Of a stretch of DNA of 34,462 bases, positions 539 to 30,121 are shown in pieces. How positions within the stretch are numbered: position 1 is the stretch's first letter; the number at the start of each line of letters is the position of its first letter. The notes under the pieces were generated by a model, which ran no database searches, was not told the origin of the DNA, and saw nothing but the letters and a program-made list of their open reading frames with translations. Source of the stretch: a virus; the UHGV virus genome UHGV-1637875. One strand, written 5' to 3'. Position numbers and translations under genes: made by a program.

Positions 539-3505
539 TTAGAATTTAAAATAATTGCTAATTTTACGAGCAATTTTAGTGAAGAAAGGTGTTTTCAATT
601 CTTTAATTTCTTCACTCATTTCCTGAATAGCCTTAATTAAAAGAGCATTCACAGCAGAGTTAGAAATTGTCAGAACATCAGATCCATCAACTTCAACTTT
701 AGATACAGCTTCCGGTAATTCCTTTTCAAGGTCCTGAGCAATAATACCAACTTCACGTTTAATAACACTACGGTCTTTAATAGACTTAACTTTATCGTAA
801 ATATAAACTTTCAGTCGGCAAACTTTTTCGACCGCTCCATATTCTAATTCTTCTTTATTAATCTTGAGACGGGAGTCAGAACGAATATACACATCGCTAA
901 AGCTACCATTTCCTGGTGTATAAAAGAATCCATCATGATGGAATTCAAACACAGCTTGTGGGTGTTCAGCATCAGGAGAAGCCTCCGTGGATCCGACACG
1001 AATGATTGCTTGCCCCCACTGTGATGGAATACGACGCATACCAAAGTCAACAGCGGTGCTATATCCTTGATTGGTTATAACGCTTCTTGCTTTAAGAATA
1101 GGATAATAACATTCCTGTGAAACATAACCATGATCAACGAATAATGGAGCTTCTACTCGCCATTGGTTGCCCCAATCACCCGGTTGTCTAGCAATCCATC
1201 CAGAACCGTTAATGTGTACACGGTCACGGTTAACGTTAACCATTGCGGTATTTTGCGGGTTTAACGCAATCTCACCATTGTTTGTGATATGTACTGCCGC
1301 CTGAGAAGCATAGCTATAAAATGCTAGCGAATTATCAGCACCACCCTTACCAATATACCAGTTATTAGTCCCGTCTACGTCACCACGAATATACAAAGAA
1401 TTACTAGCAGGTGCTGATAATACAATAGAATCACCCGGACGTTTAATAATCAATCTACCATCGGATTCAACTTCACCAAAGAATTTAGTTTTAATTGCAC
1501 CAGTCGCTAAAGTACGTTCAGTAGAAAAATGAACTCCTTTGCTGTCTTCTAACTGAATAATGTTATCACGCGCATTATTACTATCACCCCAATGGTTAAA
1601 TTTAAAATAATCTCGTGATCCTAAACGTCCGGCGTCAAAAGTCATCAAGCCTTTTATATTAATATCACCACCAAAAAATGCGGTGAGAGAATCACGTTTT
1701 AATTTTAAAACGTTAGCACCACTAGTACCACCTAAAGTAACATCACCAGTTCTCAATTCATAACGGAAAGGTCTATTTGTATTAAAGTTTCCATCTTGAT
1801 CATCTTCGTCGGTGGAAAGAATATAAAGACTCTCTCCATCATTACGGAAAAATGTACCAAATTTTCCGCCATACAGGCGGAACGCATTCAATGCGCGAAA
1901 TTTAACTTCTGTATTAAAAGTTGTAGTTGATTTAAACGTGGTTGCAGCACCGAAGTTAACTGCGCCATTAAAATCTTGCTGCGCTGTCCATTTGTGGCGA
2001 CCATCTTCAAGAACAACACGACGAACTGTGCAAGTTCTATTTCCTGAATTACCGAATACACGAACGACAAAATAACGGTCGTTTGTCTGGGATACAGTAC
2101 CGCGCCAAACCTGAACAGTGCGCCCTGTGCTAGTATGTTCGCTAGGACCGACAGAAAACATAACCAAGTTTCCATTAATCGTCCCCCAATCCATATTTGC
2201 TGGCATGTTCTTTATTTTATTCAAAGGAACGCTAAACATACTACCAGGGACAAAATCAAAGGTTTGCCAATCTAACTCCGCTAATTGAGCTTTAATACCA
2301 CCCATACCCAAAGTAATTGGCAGAGAATAAGATGTATATACTTCGTTCCATGCACCCCAAACACCGCCGGTATATGCGCGCTCAAAAATACGATCGCGGG
2401 TAGTTGCACCCGTTCCGGCAGTAGTAAATTTTTGGAAAATAGCACCGCCAGAAGCACGCTGTTTAACTTCCAGCAAACCAACAATAACAGTCGGCAAACC
2501 TTCACCGGTAGGACAGTTAATAACGGCATCAGTGCCTAAAATATTATATAACCCAGGAGTTTTAAAATCATTCAGATCTCCATCATAAAAAGTCGCTGGT
2601 GTGACATTACCGACTTGTTGCCACGGTCCCCATTTAGGCGCAGAAGCATCCCACGCAGCAGCAAGACAGCGAGTATAAACAACACCAAATCTGGTCGTAT
2701 ATCTCTGTGTGCGAGAATAGTTTCCACCTTCATATACTTCTAAAAGTCCTTGAGCTGACGACCCCTCTTCTGGGAAATTTCTGTCAAAGGTAGCAATAGA
2801 ATTTGAACTATTTCGCCACAAACCAAAGTGTTCAGCGCCTCCTAGATCATTAAGATCAATTGTTGTTGACAGTGGACGAGTACCGGATTGAATATTTCGC
2901 CACACACTCCACGGACCATTTACTCCGTTCCATGTAGCAGTCAAGGAACGAATATAAACATTTCCGTATCTAGTTGTATATCTCTGAGTACCAGCAAATT
3001 GACCGGCCACAAATACTTCTAGCACACCTACAGCATTTTCTTCTGGAAATTTATTTGCTGGTTGAGCGTTGGTTGAAGTTGCTTTCGACCAAACACCAAG
3101 ATATTCTTCAACAGGCCCATACTCATCTAAATTAGCATCAACAGGTAATTCGCCATTATTTTTTATAAATGTTGTGCTATTGACATTTATGTCAGATGGA
3201 GTTAGCGTGATATCCTTTGACCCATCAAAGGATATACCATTAATTTTTCGTGCTGTTTTTAATTTCGTTGCAGTTGCAGCGTTACCTGTTAAATTTCCAA
3301 TTATATTTCCATTAACAGTTAAAGAACCATCAATTGTTCCTCCATATTTTAAACCTAATTCTATAACACTACCTGAGTCATCTTTTGTGAAAATTGTTTT
3401 ATCTTTTAAGTTTATAGCCAATTCACCTTCGGCTAATACTGAAGCAGCAGGACGTTGACCTGCAGTTTTGCTTCTTTTAAATTGTATTTGTTTTAAAGTA
3501 GCCAT
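539..3505 (-). CDS. 37: Long tail fibre distal subunit gp37 with C-terminal intramolecular chaperone domain
   Basis: 988-aa ORF. N-terminus [35 protein letters not shown] is the conserved gp37 N-terminus. The last ~113 aa (from [12 protein letters not shown]..., about 542-880) look like the self-cleaving intramolecular chaperone found in endosialidase-type tail fibres. The T4-type His-box tip is absent. Confidence 0.9.
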
Positions 3506-11487: not shown

Positions 11488-12117
11488 ATGAATATAGTAT
11501 ATTGGTTTACATTTGAAGACCGTGTCAAAAATAAGACTCCGCCATACTACTATATCGGTAGTAAATTAAATTGCTCATTTGAGAACGGAATAATATATGA
11601 CTCTTCCAGAAAGGAATACTGGAGCTCATGTAAACAAAAAAGATTTTTGAATGCGCTAATGCTTCAAAAACCGAGCGTTAAAATAATTCAAATTGATGAT
11701 GACTTGGATGTTATTGAAGCAGAACGAAAATACCAACTTGAAGTAAATGCCAGAGATAATCCAGACTATTTTAATCTGGTATATGCTGGTGGTGGATTTG
11801 GTGTGAGTGGTGAAACTCATCCAGCCAAAGACCCGGAAGTTAGAGAGCATATGAGATTGGCTAATTATATGAACCGTGACGATTTTAGACCTTGGAAAAC
11901 ATCACGAGCTAATATAGAGTCTTGGAAATTATCTCATATTGCTTACGAGAATTATGTGTTATTATCCTCTAATCTGTACGGTAAAACTCCTGGATGGCGA
12001 AGAGTTAAAGGTAATATAAATATAACTGATACAACTGCTAAATCGATGGTAAAGTATTTCAACTCAGGTTGGATACCTCTCGAAGACCCAGAGTATTGCG
12101 AATTATGCCAGCTATGA
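11488..12117 (+). CDS. segG: Putative GIY-YIG-family homing endonuclease (SegG-like, between genes 59 and 32)
   Basis: 209-aa ORF with N-terminal IVYWFTF...YYYIGSK resembling a degenerate GIY...YIG module. It occupies the slot between genes 59 and 32 where T4 carries segG. Motif match is imperfect, so confidence is moderate. Confidence 0.5.
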   Translation: MNIVYWFTFEDRVKNKTPPYYYIGSKLNCSFENGIIYDSSRKEYWSSCKQKRFLNALMLQKPSVKIIQIDDDLDVIEAERKYQLEVNARDNPDYFNLVYAGGGFGVSGETHPAKDPEVREHMRLANYMNRDDFRPWKTSRANIESWKLSHIAYENYVLLSSNLYGKTPGWRRVKGNINITDTTAKSMVKYFNSGWIPLEDPEYCELCQL

Positions 12118-12166: not shown

Positions 12167-13072
12167 ATGTTTAAACGTAAATCTACTGCTGAACTTGCTG
12201 CACAAATGGCTAAACTGAATGGCAATAAAGGTTTTTCTTCTGAAGATAAAGGCGAGTGGAAACTGAAACTCGATAATGCGGGTAACGGTCAAGCAGTAAT
12301 TCGTTTTCTTCCGTCTAAAAATGATGAACAAGCACCATTCGCAATTCTTGTAAATCACGGTTTCAAGAAAAATGGTAAATGGTATATTGAAACATGTTCA
12401 TCTACCCACGGTGATTACGATTCTTGTCCAGTATGTCAATACATCAGTAAAAATGATCTGTACAACACTGACAATAAAGAGTACAGTCTTGTTAAACGTA
12501 AAACTTCTTACTGGGCTAATATTCTTGTTGTAAAAGACCCAGCTGCTCCAGAAAATGAAGGTAAAGTATTTAAATATCGTTTCGGTAAGAAAATCTGGGA
12601 TAAAATCAACGCGATGATTGCGGTTGATGTTGAAATGGGTGAAACTCCAGTTGATGTAACTTGTCCGTGGGAAGGTGCTAACTTTGTACTGAAAGTTAAA
12701 CAAGTTTCTGGTTTTAGTAACTACGACGAATCTAAATTCCTGAATCAATCTGCGATTCCAAACATTGATGATGAATCTTTCCAGAAAGAACTGTTCGAAC
12801 AAATGGTTGACCTTTCTGAAATGACTTCTAAAGATAAATTCAAATCGTTTGAAGAACTGAGCACTAAGTTCAGTCAAGTTATGGGAACTGCTGCTATGGG
12901 TGGTGCCGCAGCAACTGCCGCTAAGAAAGCTGATAAAGTTGCTGATGATTTGGATGCATTCAATGTTGATGACTTCAATACAAAAACTGAAGATGATTTT
13001 ATGAGCTCAAGCTCTGGCAGTTCATCTAGTGCTGATGACACGGACCTGGATGACCTTTTGAATGACCTTTAA
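12167..13072 (+). CDS. 32: Single-stranded DNA-binding protein gp32
   Basis: 301 aa, [49 protein letters not shown]..., acidic C-terminal tail ([22 protein letters not shown]); essentially T4 gp32. Confidence 0.95.
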
Positions 13073-13094
13073 TAGACTATATTACTAATTAATT

Positions 13095-13119
13095 GGGGAC
13101 CCTAGAGGTCCCCTTTTTT
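13095..13119 (+). terminator. Rho-independent terminator after gene 32
   Basis: ggggacc-ctaga-ggtcccc followed by tttttt. Confidence 0.8.
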
Positions 13120-13145
13120 ATTTCAAAAATTTTTTCACAAAACGG

Positions 13146-13174
13146 TTTACAACCAAAGCATACTGTGGTACTAT
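13146..13174 (+). promoter_or_regulatory. Early promoter
   Basis: gTTTACA, 17-bp spacer, TACTAT preceded by gtg; upstream of the 75-aa ORF. Confidence 0.5.
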
Positions 13175-13217
13175 ACAACTATCGGCAATACTGCTGATGA
13201 TTAAAGAGGAAAATAAT

Positions 13218-13445
13218 ATGGCTAAAATTGATATTGATGTTGTTGATTTTGAATATATTGAAGAAATTATTCGTAATCGTTATCCTGAACTTAGTATCAT
13301 AAGCGCACTAAATGATCCTAATTGTAATGTTTCAGTTGTTATTGAAGGTCCTTTAAATCGTCTTAAACAGTTTATGGTTAATGAATACTGCGACGGTATG
13401 GATGCTGAAGATATAGAATTTTACACAGGATTTATTGAACAGTAA
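13218..13445 (+). CDS. Small early hypothetical protein (frd-32 accessory region); paralog of the 13928-14143 ORF
   Basis: 75 aa from the ATG at 13218 with an AGAGGA ribosome-binding site; [26 protein letters not shown]...NEYCDGM.... Confidence 0.7.
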
Positions 13446-13451
13446 TTATCA

Positions 13452-13469
13452 AGGGGCTATCAAGCCCCT
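13452..13469 (+). promoter_or_regulatory. Intercistronic GC-rich hairpin
   Basis: aggggct-atca-agcccct, a perfect 7-bp stem with no U-run, between two small ORFs. Confidence 0.4.
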
Positions 13470-13489
13470 ATTAAAATGAGGAAAACGCA

Positions 13490-13870
13490 ATGTATACTGG
13501 TAAAAAGTATGAACTTATTCCAAGACTTATTGATACATTTATTAATTATAGCCCGTGTTCTAATTCATCAATAGTTAAAGCCATTCGAGATAATGGCGGA
13601 TGGTTTGAAGTTAAAGAAGTTTCCGTCGCTAATGGATATAAAGCAGTAAAACACATTGAATGCGCAAATGGAAAGCATTTTTACCTCAAAGATAGACTTT
13701 TAGAAATTTGCGAAGACGAATTTCATTGTTTTCGTGAGTATAAAGAACCGACTTCTGAAAAAGATGAAGTCAAAGACCCGGTTTCTGGCGTAACAAAAAT
13801 TCACTGCATTGTAGACGAAAACAATGTAGATGAAATCATTGAACTTTTGCGAAAAACTTTCAAAAAGTAG
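13490..13870 (+). CDS. Hypothetical early protein
   Basis: 126-aa ORF with GAGG 8 nt upstream of the ATG; cysteine-rich (several CxxC-like pairs), no family recognised. Confidence 0.65.
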   Translation: MYTGKKYELIPRLIDTFINYSPCSNSSIVKAIRDNGGWFEVKEVSVANGYKAVKHIECANGKHFYLKDRLLEICEDEFHCFREYKEPTSEKDEVKDPVSGVTKIHCIVDENNVDEIIELLRKTFKK

Positions 13871-13904
13871 TTTACAGAAGGGTAGTAGTGTGATACTATT
13901 ACCC
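13871..13904 (+). promoter_or_regulatory. Early promoter with -10 box nested in a stem-loop (PeSL-type)
   Basis: gTTTACA (13870-13876), 17-bp spacer, TACTAT (13894-13899); dyad gggtagtag (13880-13888) / ctattaccc (13896-13904). Confidence 0.6.
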
Positions 13905-13927
13905 TATCAATTACATGGGGAAAATAA

Positions 13928-14143
13928 ATGGCTAAGGTTAATATTGATATTGTTGATTTTGAATACACTTACGAAGTTATCCGCAATCGTTATCCTTCTT
14001 TGAGTATGGCTTACATTAAAGATACCCAATTCTTTAGTATTCAAATTGAAGTCCAAGGTCCTCTTGAAGACCTTATCAGTTTTATGACCAATGAGTATTG
14101 TGATGGCATGTATCCTGAAGATGCTAAATTTATATGGGCTTAA
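13928..14143 (+). CDS. Small early hypothetical protein; paralog of the 13218-13445 ORF
   Basis: 71 aa, [26 protein letters not shown]...NEYCDGM..., about half the residues shared with the 75-aa ORF. Confidence 0.7.
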
Positions 14144-14157
14144 TTCAAAAATAAATG

Positions 14158-14190
14158 TTTACAACAGGCTATGGTAATGATACTATAGCC
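14158..14190 (+). promoter_or_regulatory. Early promoter with -10 box nested in a stem-loop (PeSL-type)
   Basis: gTTTACA (14157-14163), 17-bp spacer, TACTAT (14181-14186); dyad ggctatggta (14167-14176) / tactatagcc (14181-14190). Confidence 0.6.
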
Positions 14191-14212
14191 TTATCAACTT
14201 GAGGAGAATAAA

Positions 14213-14455
14213 ATGAGATTACAACGCCATAGCATCAAAGATTCGGAAGTTAGAGGTAAATGGTATTTTAATATCATCGGTAAAGATTCTGAACTTGTTG
14301 AAAAAGCTGAACATCTTTTACGTGACATGGGATGGGAAGATGAATGTGATGGATGTCCTCTTTATGAAGACGGAGAAAGCGCAGGATTCTGGATTTACCA
14401 TTCTGACGTCGAGCAGTTTAAAGCTGATTGGAAAATTGTGAAAAAGTCTGTTTAA
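14213..14455 (+). CDS. Hypothetical early protein
   Basis: 80-aa ORF with a GAGGAG ribosome-binding site. Confidence 0.65.
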   Translation: MRLQRHSIKDSEVRGKWYFNIIGKDSELVEKAEHLLRDMGWEDECDGCPLYEDGESAGFWIYHSDVEQFKADWKIVKKSV

Positions 14456-14465
14456 GGAAAATAAT

Positions 14466-15292
<827 letters not shown>

Positions 15293-15312
15293 AATAACGC
15301 GTGGCGGAAAAT

Positions 15313-15660
15313 ATGAACTTTAATTATTACCCTATTCTATTAGAAAAAGACGCGAAACAACCAAAATGGCAGGGTCCTCAGTTTATTAAAGGCGTCTATC
15401 AATTAGTAGTTCCTAAAGACAAGATTTATAGTAGTTGTTTCACTGAATCCGCTTGCAGTATTTTCGGTAATAGTTCTCCGTATTGGAATTTTGATATAAA
15501 ACTGGATAGAAATATCGATATTTGGTTGAAAGCCATGGATATTGGCAATATTACGTTTGATGAGAATAATTATCATATTATTGGTCGCTTTTCTAAACGC
15601 GGTAAAGAATTATATTTCACTCCTGAAATCGAAAGAAAATTTGATGCTAAACCGTATTGA
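15313..15660 (+). CDS. Hypothetical protein encoded by an insertion between frd and td
   Basis: 115-aa ORF from the ATG at 15313 (MNFNYYPILLEKDAKQPKWQGPQF...); no motif recognised; weak ribosome-binding site. T4 has no gene here because frd and td overlap. Confidence 0.55.
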   Translation: MNFNYYPILLEKDAKQPKWQGPQFIKGVYQLVVPKDKIYSSCFTESACSIFGNSSPYWNFDIKLDRNIDIWLKAMDIGNITFDENNYHIIGRFSKRGKELYFTPEIERKFDAKPY

Positions 15661-15705: not shown

Positions 15706-16566
15706 ATGAAACAATACCAAGATTTAATTAAAGACATTTTTGAAAATGGCTATGAAACCGATGATCGAACAGGCACAGGAACAATTGCTTTGTTCGGTAC
15801 TAAATTACGCTGGGATTTAAGTAAAGGTTTTCCTGCAGTAACAACTAAAAAGCTCGCCTGGAAAGCTTGCATTGCTGAGCTACTTTGGTTTTTATCAGGA
15901 AGCACAAATGTCAATGATTTACGATTAATTCAGCATGATTCATTAATTCAAGGCAAAACAGTCTGGGATGAAAATTACGAAAATCAAGCAAAAGATTTAG
16001 GATACCACATCGGTGAACTTGGTCCAATTTATGGAAAACAATGGCGTGATTTTGGCGGTGTAGACCAAATTGTAGAAGTTATTGATCGTATTAAAAAACT
16101 GCCGAATGATAGGCGACAAATTGTTTCTGCGTGGAATCCAGCTGAACTTAAATATATGGCATTACCGCCTTGTCATATGTTCTATCAGTTTAATGTGCGT
16201 AATGGCTATTTGGATTTGCAGTGGTATCAACGATCAGTAGATGTTTTTCTTGGTCTTCCATTTAATATTGCATCATATGCTGCGTTAGTTCATATTGTAG
16301 CTAAGATGTGTAATCTTATTCCTGGAGATTTGATATTTTCTGGCGGTAATACTCATATCTATATGAATCACGTAGAACAATGTAAAGAAATTTTACGTCG
16401 TGAACCTAAAGAGCTTTGTGAACTGGTAATAGGCGGATTGCCTTATAAATTCCGTTATCTTTCTACTAAAGAACAATTGGAATACATTCTTAAACTCAGG
16501 CCTAAAGATTTCGTTCTCAAAGATTATCAGTCCCACGGTGTCTTGAAAGGAAAAATGGCGGTATAA
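15706..16566 (+). CDS. td: Thymidylate synthase, intronless
   Basis: 286 aa, MKQYQDLIKDIFENGYETDDRTGTGTIALFG...; uninterrupted ORF, so the group I intron and its endonuclease ORF seen in T4 td are absent. Confidence 0.95.
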   Translation: MKQYQDLIKDIFENGYETDDRTGTGTIALFGTKLRWDLSKGFPAVTTKKLAWKACIAELLWFLSGSTNVNDLRLIQHDSLIQGKTVWDENYENQAKDLGYHIGELGPIYGKQWRDFGGVDQIVEVIDRIKKLPNDRRQIVSAWNPAELKYMALPPCHMFYQFNVRNGYLDLQWYQRSVDVFLGLPFNIASYAALVHIVAKMCNLIPGDLIFSGGNTHIYMNHVEQCKEILRREPKELCELVIGGLPYKFRYLSTKEQLEYILKLRPKDFVLKDYQSHGVLKGKMAV

Positions 16567-17133: not shown

Positions 17134-19388
17134 TTAATGTTATCAAAAGTAGTGGTGTTTCTCAAAGCTTTGACCCGCAAAAAATTATTAAAGTTTTATC
17201 TTGGGCAGCTGAAGGAACATCTGTAGATCCTTATGAATTATATGAAAATATTAAATCATATCTCCGTGATGGAATGACCACTGATGACATTCAAACCATT
17301 GTAATTAAGGCTGCTGCGAATTCTATTTCAGTTGAAGAGCCTGATTATCAATATGTAGCTGCGCGCTGTTTAATGTTTGCTCTTCGTAAGCATGTTTATG
17401 GACAATATGAACCACGTTCATTTATTGACCATATTTCTTACTGCGTAAATGAAGGTAAATATGACCCTGAATTGTTGTCAAAATATTCAGCAGAAGAAAT
17501 TACATTTTTAGAATCAAAAATTAAGCACGAGCGGGATATGGAATTTACTTATTCCGGGGCGATGCAATTAAAAGAAAAATATCTAGTTAAAGATAAAACC
17601 ACCGGTCAAATTTATGAAACTCCACAGTTTGCATTTATGACTATTGGAATGGCATTGCATCAAGATGAACCTGTTGATAGATTAAAACATGTTATCCGTT
17701 TTTATGAAGCGGTATCTACTCGACAGATTTCATTACCAACTCCTATTATGGCTGGTTGCCGTACTCCAACTCGGCAGTTTAGTTCATGCGTTGTTATTGA
17801 GGCAGGTGATTCATTAAAGTCTATCAATAAGGCTTCCGCTTCAATTGTTGAATATATCTCTAAACGCGCTGGAATTGGTATTAACGTTGGTATGATTCGT
17901 GCTGAAGGTTCTAAGATTGGCATGGGTGAAGTACGCCATACTGGTGTTATTCCTTTTTGGAAACATTTTCAGACTGCTGTTAAATCATGCTCACAGGGTG
18001 GAATTCGTGGCGGCGCTGCTACTGCTTATTATCCTATTTGGCATTTGGAAGTTGAAAATCTTCTTGTTTTGAAAAATAACAAAGGCGTAGAAGAAAACCG
18101 CATTCGTCATATGGATTATGGTGTTCAACTGAATGATTTGATGATGGAACGTTTTGGAAAGAACGATTACATTACTTTGTTCAGTCCCCATGAAATGGGC
18201 GGAGAGCTTTATTATTCTTATTTTAAAGACCAAGACCGTTTCCGTGAATTATACGAAGCAGCAGAAAAAGACCCTAATATTCGTAAAAAGCGTATTAAAG
18301 CCCGTGAACTATTTGAATTGCTCATGACTGAACGCTCAGGAACAGCAAGGATTTATGTACAGTTCATTGATAATACGAATAACTATACTCCGTTTATTCG
18401 TGAAAAGGCACCTATTCGTCAGAGTAACTTGTGCTGTGAAATTGCTATTCCAACAAATGATGTGAATAGTCCTGATGCTGAAATTGGATTGTGTACTCTC
18501 TCTGCATTCGTACTGGATAATTTTGACTGGCAAGACCAAGATAAAATTAATGAATTGGCAGAAGTCCAGGTTCGTGCTCTTGATAATCTTTTGGATTACC
18601 AAGGATATCCAGTTCCTGAAGCAGAAAAAGCTAAAAAGCGTCGTAACCTCGGTGTAGGTGTTACTAACTATGCAGCTTGGTTGGCAAGTAACTTTGCTTC
18701 TTATGAAGATGCTAACGATTTAACACATGAACTATTTGAGAGATTACAGTATGGACTCATTAAAGCATCCATTAAACTCGCCAAAGAAAAAGGACCTTGT
18801 GAATATTATTCAGACACTCGTTGGTCTCGAGGCGAATTACCTATCGACTGGTACAATAAAAAGATTGACCAAATCGCAGCTCCAAAATACGTTTGTGACT
18901 GGTCGTCGCTGCGGGAAGACCTTAAGCTCTTTGGCATCCGTAATAGCACATTATCAGCACTTATGCCATGTGAGTCATCTTCCCAAGTTTCTAACAGTAC
19001 AAACGGTATCGAGCCTCCACGTGGACCAGTCTCTGTTAAAGAATCAAAAGAGGGCTCCTTTAATCAAGTCGTGCCCAATATTGAGCATAACATAGACCTC
19101 TATGATTATACATGGAAATTAGCTAAGAAAGGTAATAAACCTTATCTTACGCAGGTAGCTATTATGCTGAAATGGGTATGTCAATCAGCTTCAGCGAATA
19201 CATATTATGACCCACAGATTTTTCCAAAAGGAAAGGTTCCAATGTCAATAATGATTGATGATATGCTATACGGATGGTATTATGGCATTAAAAATTTCTA
19301 TTATCATAATACCCGCGATGGTTCTGGTACTGATGATTATGAAATAGAAACTCCAAAAGCTGAAGATTGCGCAGCGTGTAAATTGTAA
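17124..19388 (+). CDS. nrdA: Aerobic ribonucleotide reductase large subunit
   Basis: 754 aa, the same length as T4 NrdA; N-terminal ATP-cone and a conserved NLCCEI active-site region; GAGGA ribosome-binding site. Confidence 0.95.
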   Translation: MQLINVIKSSGVSQSFDPQKIIKVLSWAAEGTSVDPYELYENIKSYLRDGMTTDDIQTIVIKAAANSISVEEPDYQYVAARCLMFALRKHVYGQYEPRSFIDHISYCVNEGKYDPELLSKYSAEEITFLESKIKHERDMEFTYSGAMQLKEKYLVKDKTTGQIYETPQFAFMTIGMALHQDEPVDRLKHVIRFYEAVSTRQISLPTPIMAGCRTPTRQFSSCVVIEAGDSLKSINKASASIVEYISKRAGIGINVGMIRAEGSKIGMGEVRHTGVIPFWKHFQTAVKSCSQGGIRGGAATAYYPIWHLEVENLLVLKNNKGVEENRIRHMDYGVQLNDLMMERFGKNDYITLFSPHEMGGELYYSYFKDQDRFRELYEAAEKDPNIRKKRIKARELFELLMTERSGTARIYVQFIDNTNNYTPFIREKAPIRQSNLCCEIAIPTNDVNSPDAEIGLCTLSAFVLDNFDWQDQDKINELAEVQVRALDNLLDYQGYPVPEAEKAKKRRNLGVGVTNYAAWLASNFASYEDANDLTHELFERLQYGLIKASIKLAKEKGPCEYYSDTRWSRGELPIDWYNKKIDQIAAPKYVCDWSSLREDLKLFGIRNSTLSALMPCESSSQVSNSTNGIEPPRGPVSVKESKEGSFNQVVPNIEHNIDLYDYTWKLAKKGNKPYLTQVAIMLKWVCQSASANTYYDPQIFPKGKVPMSIMIDDMLYGWYYGIKNFYYHNTRDGSGTDDYEIETPKAEDCAACKL

Positions 19389-20029
19389 TGAATTATCAAA
19401 AAATCTATAATGACCTAATTTCCCGAGCTCAGGCTCGGGAACCTTTATCCGAATATAAAGAGACTCATCATATAATCCCTAGATGTATGGGAGGTTCTGA
19501 TGATAAAGAAAATTTAGTTGAATTAACAGGTAGAGAGCATTTTATAGCTCATTGGCTTTTATGCAAAATATATGACACCCCAGGATTAAAGAAAGCTTTT
19601 GGTTTAATGTGCTTGACTGGTAAAAATCGCTCATATAAAATTTCTTCTCAACTATACGAATTAGGTAGACGACGTTTATCTGAAGCTGCTGTAGGACGTG
19701 AAGTTTCTATAGAAACCAGGGAAAAGATAAGTAGAGCTCTTAAAGGAAGGAAATTTACCAAAGAGCATTTAGCTCGCATGAGAAAACCTAAAACCGAAGA
19801 AGCTAAAAAGAATATAGCTGCTGCTAAAGTCGGCGTGCTTAATCCGATGTATGGTACAATCTCTCCGACAAGAGATGTTCCTCATACTAAAGAAACTCGT
19901 GATTTGATTTCTTTGAGAACTAAGCAAAGTATAGAGTATCCGCCTTGTCCGCATTGTGGCAAGAAAGTTAATAAAGGCAATGCTCTAAGATGGCATTATG
20001 ATAAATGTAAATTTAAGGATTCTAAATGA
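19388..20029 (+). CDS. mobE: HNH-family homing endonuclease (MobE-like) inserted between nrdA and nrdB
   Basis: 213 aa; HNH motif HHIIPRCMGGSDDKENLVELTGREHFIAHW; C-terminal CPHCGK zinc-finger-like motif; start overlaps the nrdA stop (TAATG) and stop overlaps the nrdB start (ATGA). Confidence 0.65.
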   Translation: MNYQKIYNDLISRAQAREPLSEYKETHHIIPRCMGGSDDKENLVELTGREHFIAHWLLCKIYDTPGLKKAFGLMCLTGKNRSYKISSQLYELGRRRLSEAAVGREVSIETREKISRALKGRKFTKEHLARMRKPKTEEAKKNIAAAKVGVLNPMYGTISPTRDVPHTKETRDLISLRTKQSIEYPPCPHCGKKVNKGNALRWHYDKCKFKDSK

Positions 20030-21204
20030 GTACAGTTTTTAATACATCCCCTGTTAATATTTTGACTGAGCCGATGTTTTTTGGTTCTGGATTGGGTTTA
20101 GCTCGATATGATATTCAACGGCATAGAGTATTTGAAGAACTTATTGAGAAATCTTTATCATTTTTCTGGCGTCCTGAAGAAGTAAACTTAATGATGGATG
20201 CTGCACAGTTTAATAAGCTTCCTCAATATCAGCAGAATATTTTTACTAATAATCTGAAGTATCAATCACTTCTAGATAGCATTCAGGGTCGTGCACCGTC
20301 TGCTGTACTTATGTCATTGATTTCAGACCCAAGCCTTGATACATGGGTTGCTACATGGACTTTTAGTGAAACCATTCACAGTCGTTCATACACTCATATT
20401 ATGCGAAATCTTTATACTGATCCGTCAAAGGTATTTGATGAGATTGTATTAGATAAAGCTATCATGAAACGTGCTGAATCTATTGGTCGTTATTATGATG
20501 ATGTTCTGGACAAGACACGTATTTGGGAAAACGCCAAAGAAAACTTTAGTTATTTTGCTGAAAATGAATATGATTTAGAAGCATATTCAAACAGTCTCAC
20601 TCATTTGGAAGAATGTAAACGAGACCTGATGAAGTCGCTTTATCTCTGTCTGCACGTTATCAATGCTCTGGAAGCTATTCGTTTTTATGTATCCTTTGCA
20701 TGTACTTTCAACTTCCATAAGAACATGGAAATCATGGAAGGTAATGCGAAGATTATGAAATTTATTGCACGTGATGAGCAGCTTCATCTTAAAGGTACAC
20801 AATATATTATTCGTCAACTTCAATCCGGTACTGATGGTGATGAATGGGTTAAAATTGCCAAAGAGTGTGAACAAGAAGCAGTTGATATTTTCATGGAAGT
20901 TAACCGCCAAGAAAAAGATTGGGCAGTTCATTTATTTAAAGATGGCGATGTTCCTGGATTAAATACAAATAGCATGTGGAGCTTTATTGATTACTTAACT
21001 GTATCTCGTATGAAACAGTGTGGTCTTCCATGCCCGATTACCGATGCTCCGGTTAAACATCCATATCCTTGGATTCGTGAATACCTTAATTCTGATAATG
21101 TTCAATCCGCGCCGCAAGAAGTAGAACTGTCATCTTATCTTGTTGCACAGATTGATAATGATGTTGATGATAAAGTTATGATGAGTTTAAAAAAATATTT
21201 TTAA
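20026..21204 (+). CDS. nrdB: Aerobic ribonucleotide reductase small subunit, intronless
   Basis: 392-aa uninterrupted ORF, MSTVFNTSPVNILTEPMFFGSGLGLARYDIQRH...; no intron. Confidence 0.95.
   Translation: MSTVFNTSPVNILTEPMFFGSGLGLARYDIQRHRVFEELIEKSLSFFWRPEEVNLMMDAAQFNKLPQYQQNIFTNNLKYQSLLDSIQGRAPSAVLMSLISDPSLDTWVATWTFSETIHSRSYTHIMRNLYTDPSKVFDEIVLDKAIMKRAESIGRYYDDVLDKTRIWENAKENFSYFAENEYDLEAYSNSLTHLEECKRDLMKSLYLCLHVINALEAIRFYVSFACTFNFHKNMEIMEGNAKIMKFIARDEQLHLKGTQYIIRQLQSGTDGDEWVKIAKECEQEAVDIFMEVNRQEKDWAVHLFKDGDVPGLNTNSMWSFIDYLTVSRMKQCGLPCPITDAPVKHPYPWIREYLNSDNVQSAPQEVELSSYLVAQIDNDVDDKVMMSLKKYF

Positions 21205-24250: not shown

Positions 24251-24254
<4 letters not shown>
24024..24254 (+). CDS. 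Hypothetical protein
   Basis: 76-aa ORF, translationally coupled on both sides (ATGA overlaps). Confidence 0.6.
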
Positions 24255-25454
<1,200 letters not shown>

Positions 25455-26126: not shown

Positions 26127-26164
26127 TTTACTTTACGGTAGAGTTGTGATATTATGGCTCTACC
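26127..26164 (+). promoter_or_regulatory. Early promoter with -10 box nested in a stem-loop (PeSL-type)
   Basis: gTTTACT (26126-26132), 17-bp spacer, TATTAT (26150-26155); dyad ggtagag (26137-26143) / ctctacc (26158-26164). Confidence 0.6.
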
Positions 26165-26185
26165 AAACAAATGAGGAAATTGAAA

Positions 26186-26713
26186 ATGAGCGAATGGTTT
26201 GAAGAAGATAAGGTTTATCGCTTTAAAGCTGGATATAAAGATATTTTTAATGAAACTTGTGGGGCTAATAAACGAATTGCCCAGTTTATTGATGAAAATT
26301 CATTTAAAGTAAAAATTGATCCTGCGAAGAATGTTATTAGCATTAAACGTGAAATTGATGACTGTTGGTATAAAGCTGTTGATGTAATGGGCGAATGCTA
26401 TAAAGATAGCCCGTTATTTTCAATTACTTATATGTCAGAATATTATTTTTTCGAAGAAGTTCAAAAAGATGATTCTGTCAGTAAATTTGAAATTAAAACT
26501 GATAAAGAAATTAAGTGGAAAGTAGTAGGTATTACTGGTTGTATGTTCTATATCTATGCTCAAACTGATACGAAGGAAGAAGCTAAAAAGAAAGCTCTAG
26601 AATATCTTGAAGAGTATGAAGAAGGTCCGGTAATGATTACCCAAGATGCTGAATTAGTTTCTGTCAAATTAGTTAAAAACGTTGAAAGTAAGGAGCTAGG
26701 ATCAACATGCTAA
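26186..26713 (+). CDS. Hypothetical protein
   Basis: 175 aa from the ATG at 26186 with a GAGGAAA ribosome-binding site (an in-frame ATG at 26171 lacks one). Confidence 0.65.
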   Translation: MSEWFEEDKVYRFKAGYKDIFNETCGANKRIAQFIDENSFKVKIDPAKNVISIKREIDDCWYKAVDVMGECYKDSPLFSITYMSEYYFFEEVQKDDSVSKFEIKTDKEIKWKVVGITGCMFYIYAQTDTKEEAKKKALEYLEEYEEGPVMITQDAELVSVKLVKNVESKELGSTC

Positions 26714-28793: not shown

Positions 28794-28801
28794 TATAAAT
28801 A
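28794..28801 (+). promoter_or_regulatory. Possible late promoter (TATAAATA) upstream of rIII
   Basis: Exact TATAAATA directly after the gene 31 stop, about 140 nt upstream of the rIII ATG. The motif is expected several times by chance in an AT-rich genome, so this is tentative. Confidence 0.35.
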
Positions 28802-28940
28802 ATAATATGAATTGGGTGTCGGAATAATAAGTTAACCGAACAATTCTATGTGGTAGTCTACAACTGAGAGATCTGTCGAAAGAAGATGAAATTCAGAAGA
28901 ACGTGACTACCGAGTTTTAATCTCTAACGAGAATTTTTAA

Positions 28941-29189: not shown

Positions 29190-29434
29190 TTTATTGGAGA
29201 TTCACTGCCTTAGTGTGAGCTAAAATCGAGGAGCCATCGAACTGTCTGATTAATGATTTGCGAATCATTATAGTTTTAAGACCCCGGCAGTTTTATGGTG
29301 TACCTCTTGAATGTGAATGATGACGGGTTTATGGTTATCCTGGTCGTTAAATATCCAAAAACCTATGTTCCCCTTGAGGGCTTGCGCAGGCAATGCCAAT
29401 AAGTCCTGCATTTTCATTTAAAAGAGAATTTATA

Positions 29435-29611: not shown

Positions 29612-29616
29612 GTTGA

Positions 29617-29640
29617 GGACTCCTTCGGGAGTCCTTTTTT
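29617..29640 (+). terminator. Rho-independent terminator (UUCG tetraloop)
   Basis: ggactcc-ttcg-ggagtcc followed by tttttt. Confidence 0.8.
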
Positions 29641-29665: not shown

Positions 29666-29713
29666 TTTACAGTATGGTTCCTTTGTGATAGTATTATCTT
29701 ACACAAACAAAGG
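29666..29713 (+). promoter_or_regulatory. Early promoter with -10 box nested in a stem-loop (PeSL-type)
   Basis: gTTTACA (29665-29671), 17-bp spacer, TAGTAT (29689-29694); dyad cctttgt (29680-29686) / acaaagg (29707-29713), the right arm abutting the AGGAG of the next gene. Confidence 0.55.
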
Positions 29714-30057: not shown

Positions 30058-30096
30058 TTTACTTTGGTACAGGATATGATATTATATACCTGTACC
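30058..30096 (+). promoter_or_regulatory. Early promoter with -10 box nested in a stem-loop (PeSL-type)
   Basis: gTTTACT (30057-30063), 16-bp spacer, TATTAT (30080-30085); perfect 8-bp dyad ggtacagg (30066-30073) / cctgtacc (30089-30096). Confidence 0.6.
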
Positions 30097-30121
30097 GCAA
30101 TTAAACATCTTGGAGAATAAA

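Follow-up and report, generated by a model that had tools for sequence, protein, structure and literature searches.

The window analysed here comprises 34,462 nucleotides (nt) of UHGV virus genome UHGV-1637875 and is a segment of a Tequatrovirus (T4-like) genome. The interval between its gene 32 (12167–13072) and frd (14711–15292) is the known hyperplastic (variable) gene 32–frd region of such a phage, and it holds five co-oriented small open reading frames (ORFs) of 75, 126, 71, 80, and 81 amino acids (aa). The order here is frd.3, frd.2, a second frd.3, frd.1, ORF5, and frd, and T4 has three ORFs in the same interval, in the order 32–frd.3–frd.2–frd.1. The second frd.3 (ORF3) lies between two promoter early stem-loop (PeSL) elements, and comparison with related phages makes it probable that ORF3 and the PeSL downstream of it were imported from a Gaprivervirus- or Dhakavirus-like phage by recombination within PeSLs. 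An earlier note on this DNA had counted five small ORFs (71–126 aa) in the interval and three in T4, and both counts are borne out. The five ORFs and the promoters, terminator, hairpins, and PeSLs described below are on the plus strand of the window, which corresponds to the minus strand of T4.

Origin of the second frd.3 gene

ORF3 (13928–14143; 71 aa) is a frd.3 gene of the Gaprivervirus/Dhakavirus type and a paralogue of ORF1, the frd.3 copy in the T4 position (51 per cent aa identity; 77 per cent identity over the first 98 nt). Besides VEc74, the best DNA matches of the ORF3 cassette are the frd.3 genes of Gapriverviruses (VR7, VR5, and NC-G; 90 per cent identity) and then those of Dhakaviruses (JS98, JS10, and WG01; 86–88 per cent), whereas identity to Tequatrovirus frd.3 is approximately 75 per cent. 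VR7 and JS98 have the order 32–frd.2–orf–frd.3–frd.1, in which frd.3, like ORF3, is directly upstream of frd.1. Both slots for frd.3, that of Tequatrovirus and that of Gaprivervirus/Dhakavirus, are thus occupied in the window.

Along the interval, identity to VR7 is 65 per cent in the tail of frd.2 and 71 per cent in the PeSL upstream of ORF3 (PeSL-L; 13858–13927), reaches 90.3 per cent in ORF3 and 91.4 per cent in the PeSL downstream of it (PeSL-R; 14144–14212), and drops to 73 per cent in frd.1, and the tract of high identity stops sharply inside the PeSLs. With the PeSL that precedes frd.1 in VR7 and JS98, PeSL-R shares 91–93 per cent identity. At third codon positions, ORF3 is 82 per cent identical to VR7, as opposed to 37–62 per cent for gene 32, ORF1, ORF2, ORF4, ORF5, frd, and td. 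This excess goes beyond constraint at the protein level and thus speaks for horizontal acquisition and against an old duplication.

Relative to VEc74, VR7, and JS98, ORF3 has a 1-nt deletion in the T run at 14129–14131, which converts the conserved C-terminus FYMGLIQK into FIWA. Because of this frameshift, ORF3 covers only positions 1–68 of the 75 positions of the Pfam family Phage_FRD3. The deletion is either a sequencing error or a sign of early decay of the imported copy.

Junctions of the ORF3 cassette

The same site is empty in JB75 and REP4, which lack ORF3 and have a single PeSL between frd.2 and frd.1. This single element is chimeric with respect to the two PeSLs of the window: in the first 41 nt (GTTTACAGAAGGGTAGTAGTGTGATACTATTACCCTATCAA) it equals PeSL-L, and its end with the Shine–Dalgarno (SD) sequence and ATG (GAGGAGAATAAAATGAGA) is that of PeSL-R. 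Correspondingly, the alignment of JB75 to the window runs to 13928 and resumes at 14144, with the same 69 nt of JB75 used twice. In VEc74, which carries ORF3, the left PeSL has a 3' part (TATCAACTACATGAGGAAAATAAAATG) that exactly matches the PeSL ahead of VR7 frd.3, and PeSL-L of the window differs from that VEc74/VR7 sequence at three places (two substitutions and a 1-nt deletion). On the other side, PeSL-R tracks the element upstream of VR7 frd.1 up to the frd.1 ATG and is of the Tequatrovirus type beyond it. These identities place both crossovers in the block that extends from the predicted transcription start (TATCAAC) via the SD to the ATG, within approximately 12 nt on the left and approximately 22 nt on the right. 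Some of the PeSL mini-circles sequenced by Arbiol et al. have their crossover in the same zone (PMC2839356).

We hypothesize that the donor was a Gaprivervirus- or Dhakavirus-like phage, in which frd.3 is normally located directly upstream of frd.1, and that homologous recombination took place in the 3' segment of the PeSLs, their most conserved part, from TATCAAC via the SD to the ATG. Homology for the exchange would have come from the promoter, start-site, and SD blocks, which are conserved. Import could have occurred by a double crossover during co-infection or by integration of a PeSL mini-circle, two routes that would leave the same product and look alike in sequence. The reverse reaction, between PeSL-L and PeSL-R, would delete the copy and leave a single chimeric PeSL like that of most Tequatroviruses.

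Promoters, terminators, and PeSL anatomy

Transcription of the interval would start at three sigma-70-type early promoters. The pattern TTTACA-N15–19-TAYWAT has exactly three matches in the whole window, all of them in this interval (at 13146, 13871, and 14158), against 0.37 expected, and none of 100 shuffled sequences reaches three. All three promoters read TTTACA-N17-TACTAT with an extended TG (13146–13174, 13871–13899, and 14158–14186), as in the consensus of T4/PST PeSL promoters, TTTACW-N17-TAYWAT (Comeau 2014; PMC4122927), and they agree with the T4 early -10 motif TGTG(A/G)TA(C/T)(A/T)AT (bioRxiv 10.1101/2024.04.04.588121). Scanning the window for the consensus yields no promoter between ORF1 and ORF2 or between ORF4 and ORF5. 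No promoters are annotated in the 32–frd interval of the GenBank records of T4.

A PeSL comprises, in this order, an AT-rich tract that contains the stop codon of the upstream gene, a sigma-70-like promoter with its stem-loop, which in most cases lies between -35 and -10 or overlaps -10, and the SD and ATG of the next gene (Arbiol 2010; PMC2839356). The two promoters that abut an upstream ORF fit this definition, with a predicted hairpin of 10–11 bp that reaches from the spacer across the -10 box. PeSL-L has an AT-rich tract containing the frd.2 stop codon, -35 at 13871–13876, -10 at 13894–13899, a dyad over the -10 (13880–13889/13895–13904), a predicted start at A13906, and the SD GGGG at 13917–13920. 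PeSL-R likewise has an AT-rich tract, -35 at 14158–14163, -10 at 14181–14186, a dyad over the -10 (14166–14176/14181–14191), a predicted start at A14193, and the SD GAGGAG, and is followed by the frd.1 ATG at 14213. The AT-rich tracts of the two elements are TTCAAAAAGTAG and TTCAAAAATAAATG, each followed by the -35 TTTACA, and their SD/ATG ends are GGGGAAAATAAATG and GAGGAGAATAAAATG. The predicted hairpins have folding energies of -15.9 kcal/mol (PeSL-L; z -4.5 over 13875–13910) and -14.7 kcal/mol (PeSL-R; z -5.5 over 14162–14197), and in both cases none of 200 shuffles is as stable. These values confirm the dyads that had been proposed at 13880–13904 and 14167–14190 with the -10 inside.

The third promoter, upstream of ORF1 (13146–13174), has no significant dyad (dyad score 4.0; fold of -3.8 kcal/mol). 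It is preceded by the intrinsic terminator of gene 32 (13095–13113; GGGGACC-CTAGA-GGTCCCC followed by T6), which is conserved in T4, VEc74, JB75, and the Logan contig L012, ends upstream transcription just before the frd.3 promoter, and is the only intergenic intrinsic terminator that the terminator scan detects on the sense strand of 12900–15400. Together, promoter and terminator form a PeSL of the class with the stem-loop upstream of -35. A further hairpin, AGGGGCU-AUCA-AGCCCCU, is located between frd.3 and frd.2 (13452–13469; -12.9 kcal/mol, z -3.0) and has no promoter; across ten Tequatroviruses its stem is kept, and the length and sequence of its loop vary. The claim that each of the five ORFs stands behind its own stem-loop early promoter thus fails, as three of the five have a promoter and two a significant hairpin.

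The same architecture had been reported to recur at three other places in the window, and it does so at two of them. The element at 26127–26164 (z -4.8 over 26131–26166) is a PeSL orthologous to the early promoter Pe133295 named in the T4 record, and the element at 30058–30096 (z -5.8 over 30060–30100; dyad GGTACAGG.../...CCTGTACC) is a PeSL upstream of the 30.7 homologue, with no indel relative to T4. At 29666–29713, there is an early promoter upstream of the 30.8 homologue with a canonical terminator ahead of it (approximately 29612–29640), and the supposed dyad there folds no better than chance (z -0.46 for 29670–29712; 59 of 200 shuffles fold as well). At the level of sequence, PeSL-L and PeSL-R have all the features by which a PeSL is defined, and the pair is also associated with an indel whose empty sites (JB75 and REP4) carry a chimeric element.

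Pairing and possible role of the hairpins

The dyads begin in the spacer, stop 2 nt short of the predicted start (approximately -27 to -3), and are located wholly within promoter DNA. The hairpin is therefore absent from the promoter's own transcript and can form only in read-through RNA or in single-stranded DNA. In the frd.2–frd.1 slot, three unrelated stems are found across phages (GGGTAGTAGT, AGGCTATGGTA, and GGTCTATAG). Their registers differ slightly, and each stem pairs with the -10, which does not vary, and with a 3' partner of its own; this argues for selection on pairing rather than on sequence. A scan of IMG/VR with frd.1 gave five loci, too few for column-wise covariation, with the three stem types in different registers. 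Of 18 GTTTACW promoters in the window and 50 kb of T4 taken together, 7 have a dyad score of at least 7, compared to 4.5 per cent of random windows (binomial 8e-6).

On the sense strand, the imperfections of the strong dyads comprise four G.T and no A.C, and the sense fold is more stable than the antisense fold in all five independent stems, through G.U pairs. This bias favours a role of the hairpin in RNA. Within the window, the two promoters behind a canonical terminator (13146 and 29666) have no dyad, and the four that abut an ORF carry one. In read-through RNA, the hairpin would most likely attenuate, end, or stabilize the upstream message and so insulate each cassette; we give about an even chance, within the overall explanation, to its attenuating that message or marking its 3' end.

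The resident ORFs

Four of the five ORFs match Pfam families with E-values of 1e-32 to 1e-33, contrary to the assertion that none has a recognizable domain. ORF1 and ORF3 belong to Phage_FRD3 (PF05798; 110.5 and 111.6 bits, gathering cut-off 28.1), ORF2 to FRD2 (PF03197; 115.3 bits, cut-off 29), and ORF4 to DUF5417 (PF17438; 114.2 bits, cut-off 23.9), and all three families lack an assigned function.

ORF1 (frd.3; 13218–13445; 75 aa, or 82 aa from an upstream ATG) is 99 per cent identical to its JB75 counterpart and 81 per cent identical to those of T4 and VEc74, with 69 per cent aa identity to T4. The frd.3 mRNA is among the most abundant NAD-capped RNAs of T4 (bioRxiv 10.1101/2024.04.04.588121), from which we infer a start site upstream of frd.3. 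ORF2 (frd.2; 13490–13870; 126 aa) is near-universal in these phages and has divergent alleles; it is 96 per cent identical to those of REP4 and JLBYU24 and 76 per cent identical to that of T4, with 64 per cent aa identity to T4 Frd.2. An LSm-like fold has been predicted for Frd.2 (PMC12152347), and frd.2 was the only 'Fit' gene without a known function in a CRISPRi-ART screen of T4 (PMC11879866). ORF4 (frd.1; 14213–14455; 80 aa) is a Tequatrovirus-type allele, 98 per cent identical to T4 and 73–74 per cent identical to VR7 at the nt level. ORF5 (14466–14711; 81 aa) follows after a gap of 10 nt, lacks its own promoter, and shares an ATGA overlap with the start of frd. It belongs to phrog_3183 and has no Pfam match, has eight near-identical clusters of homologues, and yields an unusable structure model (pLDDT 53).

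Distribution and polymorphism of the interval

FRD3 homologues are found at 734 places in 730 phage records, so that few genomes (at most 4 of 730) can have a second copy, and FRD2 homologues in 755 records; frd.3, frd.2, and frd.1 are syntenic in approximately 730–755 records. ORF5 DNA is present in 458 records, mostly with 95–99 per cent identity. Of ORF5, T4 retains nothing but ~23 nt at the start and ~20 nt at the end and is therefore a deletion variant, which identifies ORF5 as a common Tequatrovirus gene lost by T4 and is of value for annotation. Most Tequatroviruses, such as JB75, have four ORFs (frd.3, frd.2, frd.1, and ORF5). The full five-ORF arrangement is found in one other record only, that of VEc74, whose ORF3 is 99 per cent identical. 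The junction of ORF3-type frd.3, PeSL-R, and Tequatrovirus frd.1 is present also in a European Nucleotide Archive (ENA) scaffold and in a Logan contig. Judged by these distributions, ORF3 is the sole strain-specific ORF of the five. The comparison with other T-even genomes that had been proposed to single out strain-specific ORFs thus does so for ORF3; frd.3, frd.2, frd.1, and ORF5 are widespread.

The locus is polymorphic in other ways as well. In T4 itself, an unannotated 22-codon hydrophobic ORF with its own SD (MFAPYIMAAVMLVCLYLLIKAC; NC_000866, ~146015–146083, minus strand) occupies the slot of ORF3, immediately behind the PeSL that follows frd.2 and ahead of frd.1. In 197 records, the 111-nt segment that contains it is at least 95 per cent identical, and this ORF, too, bears on annotation. 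A gene like ORF254c is located just upstream of the PeSL in 203 records (approximately 119 of them at 95 per cent identity or more), and a DUF7247 gene is located between frd.1 and ORF5 in 243 records. Phages with identical flanking genes can have different PeSL stems (GGGTAGTAGT in JLBYU24 and AGGCTATGGTA in L006/L007), which points to exchange inside the PeSLs. The interval of the window is itself a mosaic, as its closest alleles are those of JB75 for ORF1, REP4/JLBYU24 for ORF2, and VEc74 for ORF3.

The Logan contig L012 (SRR29999948), a short-read assembly, has the order 32, frd.3, frd.1, DUF7247, ORF5, and frd and lacks frd.2. Its frd.3 (3001–3249) is chimeric, being of the T4 type in the 5' two-thirds and of the ORF3 type in the 3' third and on into PeSL-R. 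This looks like the product expected from recombination between the FRD3 paralogues of a five-ORF genome. A partial match to Frd.2 occurs in OQ031495 (MRostami-2023e), which matches only the last 27 Frd.2 residues and may be another frd.2 deletion. It is conceivable, although we consider it rather unlikely, that PeSLs provide a general, integrase-free means of cassette exchange across Tevenvirinae genera and that this locus displays one cycle of it, including the frd.2-deleting paralogue fusion of L012. Such a cycle would pass from import of a foreign frd.3, through a stage with two diverged FRD3 paralogues, whose targets may differ, to recombination of one paralogue with the other. If so, frd.2 would be dispensable in some natural backgrounds, and FRD3 and Frd.2 could be functionally linked.

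Alternative explanations

The presence of two frd.3 copies could also reflect an ancient tandem duplication, in which a T-even ancestor had both copies and different genera lost different ones, Tequatroviruses mostly the second and Gapriverviruses and Dhakaviruses the first, with this phage and VEc74 having kept both. The copies are indeed true paralogues, and each is in the position that is standard for one genus. However, vertical descent predicts equal divergence of neighbouring genes from VR7, at odds with the third-position identities of ORF3 and its neighbours. Two copies are, moreover, so rare among the FRD3-bearing records, and the high-identity tract ends so sharply inside the PeSLs, that we regard an ancient duplication as unlikely. 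An assembly artefact, in which reads from a mixed Tequatrovirus and Gaprivervirus sample were mis-joined at repeated PeSLs, would account for junctions that fall in repeated elements and for the homopolymer-length frameshift in ORF3, but the same architecture occurs in the independently sequenced VEc74 and the same ORF3/frd.1 junction in two unrelated metagenomic contigs. We rejected this extremely improbable explanation on these three independent occurrences (VEc74, the ENA scaffold, and the Logan contig). The picture drawn in the earlier note, of five independently mobile PeSL cassettes of strain-specific host-takeover or anti-defence proteins, is very unlikely. It agrees with the rarity and PeSL flanks of ORF3 and with the polymorphism of the slot, the reading as PeSLs holds for the two junctions that the note had located, and the comparative data support a part of PeSLs in shuffling. 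As a set of five cassettes, however, it is already contradicted for four of the five ORFs, given the missing promoters of two and the wide, conserved distribution of frd.3, frd.2, frd.1, and ORF5. Nor did we find anything in favour of an anti-defence or host-takeover role of any of the ORFs: the structure model of FRD3 predicts a generic ferredoxin-like fold, neither its fold nor its sequence resembles any characterized inhibitor of either kind, and the published hints on Frd.2 concern RNA biology and phage fitness, not defence (PMC12152347; PMC11879866).

A different possibility concerns the dyads, which might act as DNA, by forming cruciforms, by binding dimeric proteins that modulate the early promoters, or by being hot spots of recombination or replication stalling that generate indels. 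A hairpin that its own transcript cannot contain is in keeping with this idea, as is the observation that three of the four significant dyads of the window abut an indel relative to T4. Arbiol et al. speculate on a recombination protein that binds stem-loops and cite T4 deletions at GGGC/GCCC repeats (PMC2839356). Yet the stems are unrelated between sites, which argues against a sequence-specific binding protein; the excess of G.T over A.C and the greater stability of the sense folds fit RNA better than extrusion from duplex DNA; and the crossovers map to the block from start site to SD, not to the stems. We therefore find a DNA-level role doubtful, if less so than the other alternatives.

Import of ORF3 by recombination within PeSLs thus remains our preferred interpretation, and several observations weigh against it or against the mechanism attached to it. 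The best donor match reaches just 90 per cent, so that the donor lineage is unsampled or the transfer was not recent. In this genome, the exact runs shared by PeSL-L and PeSL-R measure 6–10 nt, and excision here should therefore be inefficient. The ORF254c-like gene of approximately 119 Tequatrovirus records (e.g. at 1102–1362 of L014, from JLBYU24) is ~90 per cent identical to its Dhakavirus and Gaprivervirus counterparts, a level that ORF3 shares, so that a single transfer of a larger block, with different trimming afterwards, may be the source of both. The ORF5 and DUF7247 indels have no PeSL and show SD-only junctions. Promoter activity is deduced from consensus matches and T4 orthologues. 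As to the hairpins, the sense-strand bias comes from just five independent stems, and with T4 added, the mutual exclusivity of dyad and upstream terminator falls short of significance (Fisher p 0.25). What comes after the PeSL hairpins is TATCAA... rather than a U tract, and the hairpins are negative in the intrinsic-terminator scan on both strands, which makes strict termination doubtful.

Another driver of gene conversion in this part of the genome is marker exclusion by the homing endonuclease SegG, encoded next to gene 32; in the window, segG is at 11488–12117 (99 per cent identical to T4 SegG). We rejected SegG-driven co-conversion as the source of ORF3 because the genes that separate ORF3 from segG (gene 32, ORF1, and ORF2) are of the Tequatrovirus type.

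Relationship to known systems

The mechanism has already been described, as the indel pattern reproduces the published PeSL model and the ORFs belong to known T4 families. The PeSLs of this locus resemble the published cassettes (PMC2839356; PMC4122927) in their succession of an AT-rich tract with stop codon, promoter, stem-loop over -10, SD, and ATG, and in their location in a hyperplastic region. Here, too, two copies flank a single small ORF that is missing in close relatives, which keep one chimeric element, and crossovers between -10 and SD are those seen in sequenced mini-circles. Unlike in the published cases, the exchange apparently went from one genus into another (from Gaprivervirus/Dhakavirus into Tequatrovirus), the gene brought in adds a second member to a family already present, and the hairpins have no U tracts. 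Compared to the T4 frd.1, frd.2, and frd.3 genes, which ORF4, ORF2, and ORF1/ORF3, respectively, match end to end within their families, and whose order ORF1, ORF2, and ORF4 share, the locus differs by having two FRD3 copies instead of one, divergent ORF1 and ORF2 alleles, and a frameshifted ORF3 C-terminus.

Lambdoid morons (Hendrix et al. 2000, discussed in PMC2839356) are likewise single accessory genes that were inserted between resident ones together with a promoter and an element that insulates transcripts. In the present locus, by contrast, the flanking regulatory elements are conserved linkers that give homology for insertion and deletion, and the cassette is co-oriented with its neighbours. 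There is also a resemblance to integrons. Their cassettes are small single-ORF units bounded by imperfect inverted repeats, which can circularize and reinsert at a like site. The present locus differs from them in having no integrase and no attC or attI, in that the element carries a promoter, and in that exchange is attributed to the general homologous recombination of the phage.

Three phage pairs (RB49/phi1, T4/PST, and KVP40/nt-1) are the main basis of the PeSL model. To these the locus adds a clean example resolved at the sequence level, with a filled site, many chimeric empty sites, the donor-type arrangement in another genus, and mapped crossovers, and it suggests PeSL-mediated exchange between genera. 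The specific points that are new are the apparent import across genera of a second member of a resident family, the location of the crossovers, the loss of frd.2 through what looks like recombination between paralogues, and the frameshifted ORF3 C-terminus; the example is useful and will not surprise a T4 specialist. The locus also marks limits of the model, since most of its ORFs are conserved and several indels have no PeSL. Relative to T4, just two of approximately eight indels in the window abut a PeSL, and between 17 and 34 kb, the only one that does so is the insertion of a 180-aa ORF (26171–26713). This ORF follows the PeSL at 26127, is absent from T4, and has no Pfam match.

Other features of the window

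Over 24.7 kb, the closest public matches of the window (VEc20, BCH953P4, and RB3) are approximately 96 per cent identical, and none of the public records is identical to it. No Rfam family is matched in the entire window. The genes are arranged in the order tail-fibre genes, rnh, dsbA, 33, 59, segG, gene 32, the small ORFs, and frd.

Downstream of frd, an ORF of 115–119 aa (15301–15660; phrog_1928) lies between frd and td; it is present in JB75, VEc74, and L011/L012 and absent from T4, where frd and td overlap. The segments at 15706–16566, 19388–20029, and 20026–21204 comprise the td and nrdB genes, both uninterrupted by group I introns, and, between nrdA and nrdB, a homing-endonuclease ORF with HNH and NUMOD3 domains, in a region unlike T4 mobE/nrdB.1. 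The intron-less nrdB segment is apparent in the comparison with T4. Between the pseT.1 and pseT homologues, a 100-aa ORF (24251–24553) that is absent from T4 and has no Pfam match is translationally coupled and has no PeSL. The rIII homologue is flanked by two non-coding stretches, at 28794–28940 (147 nt) and 29190–29392 (203 nt).

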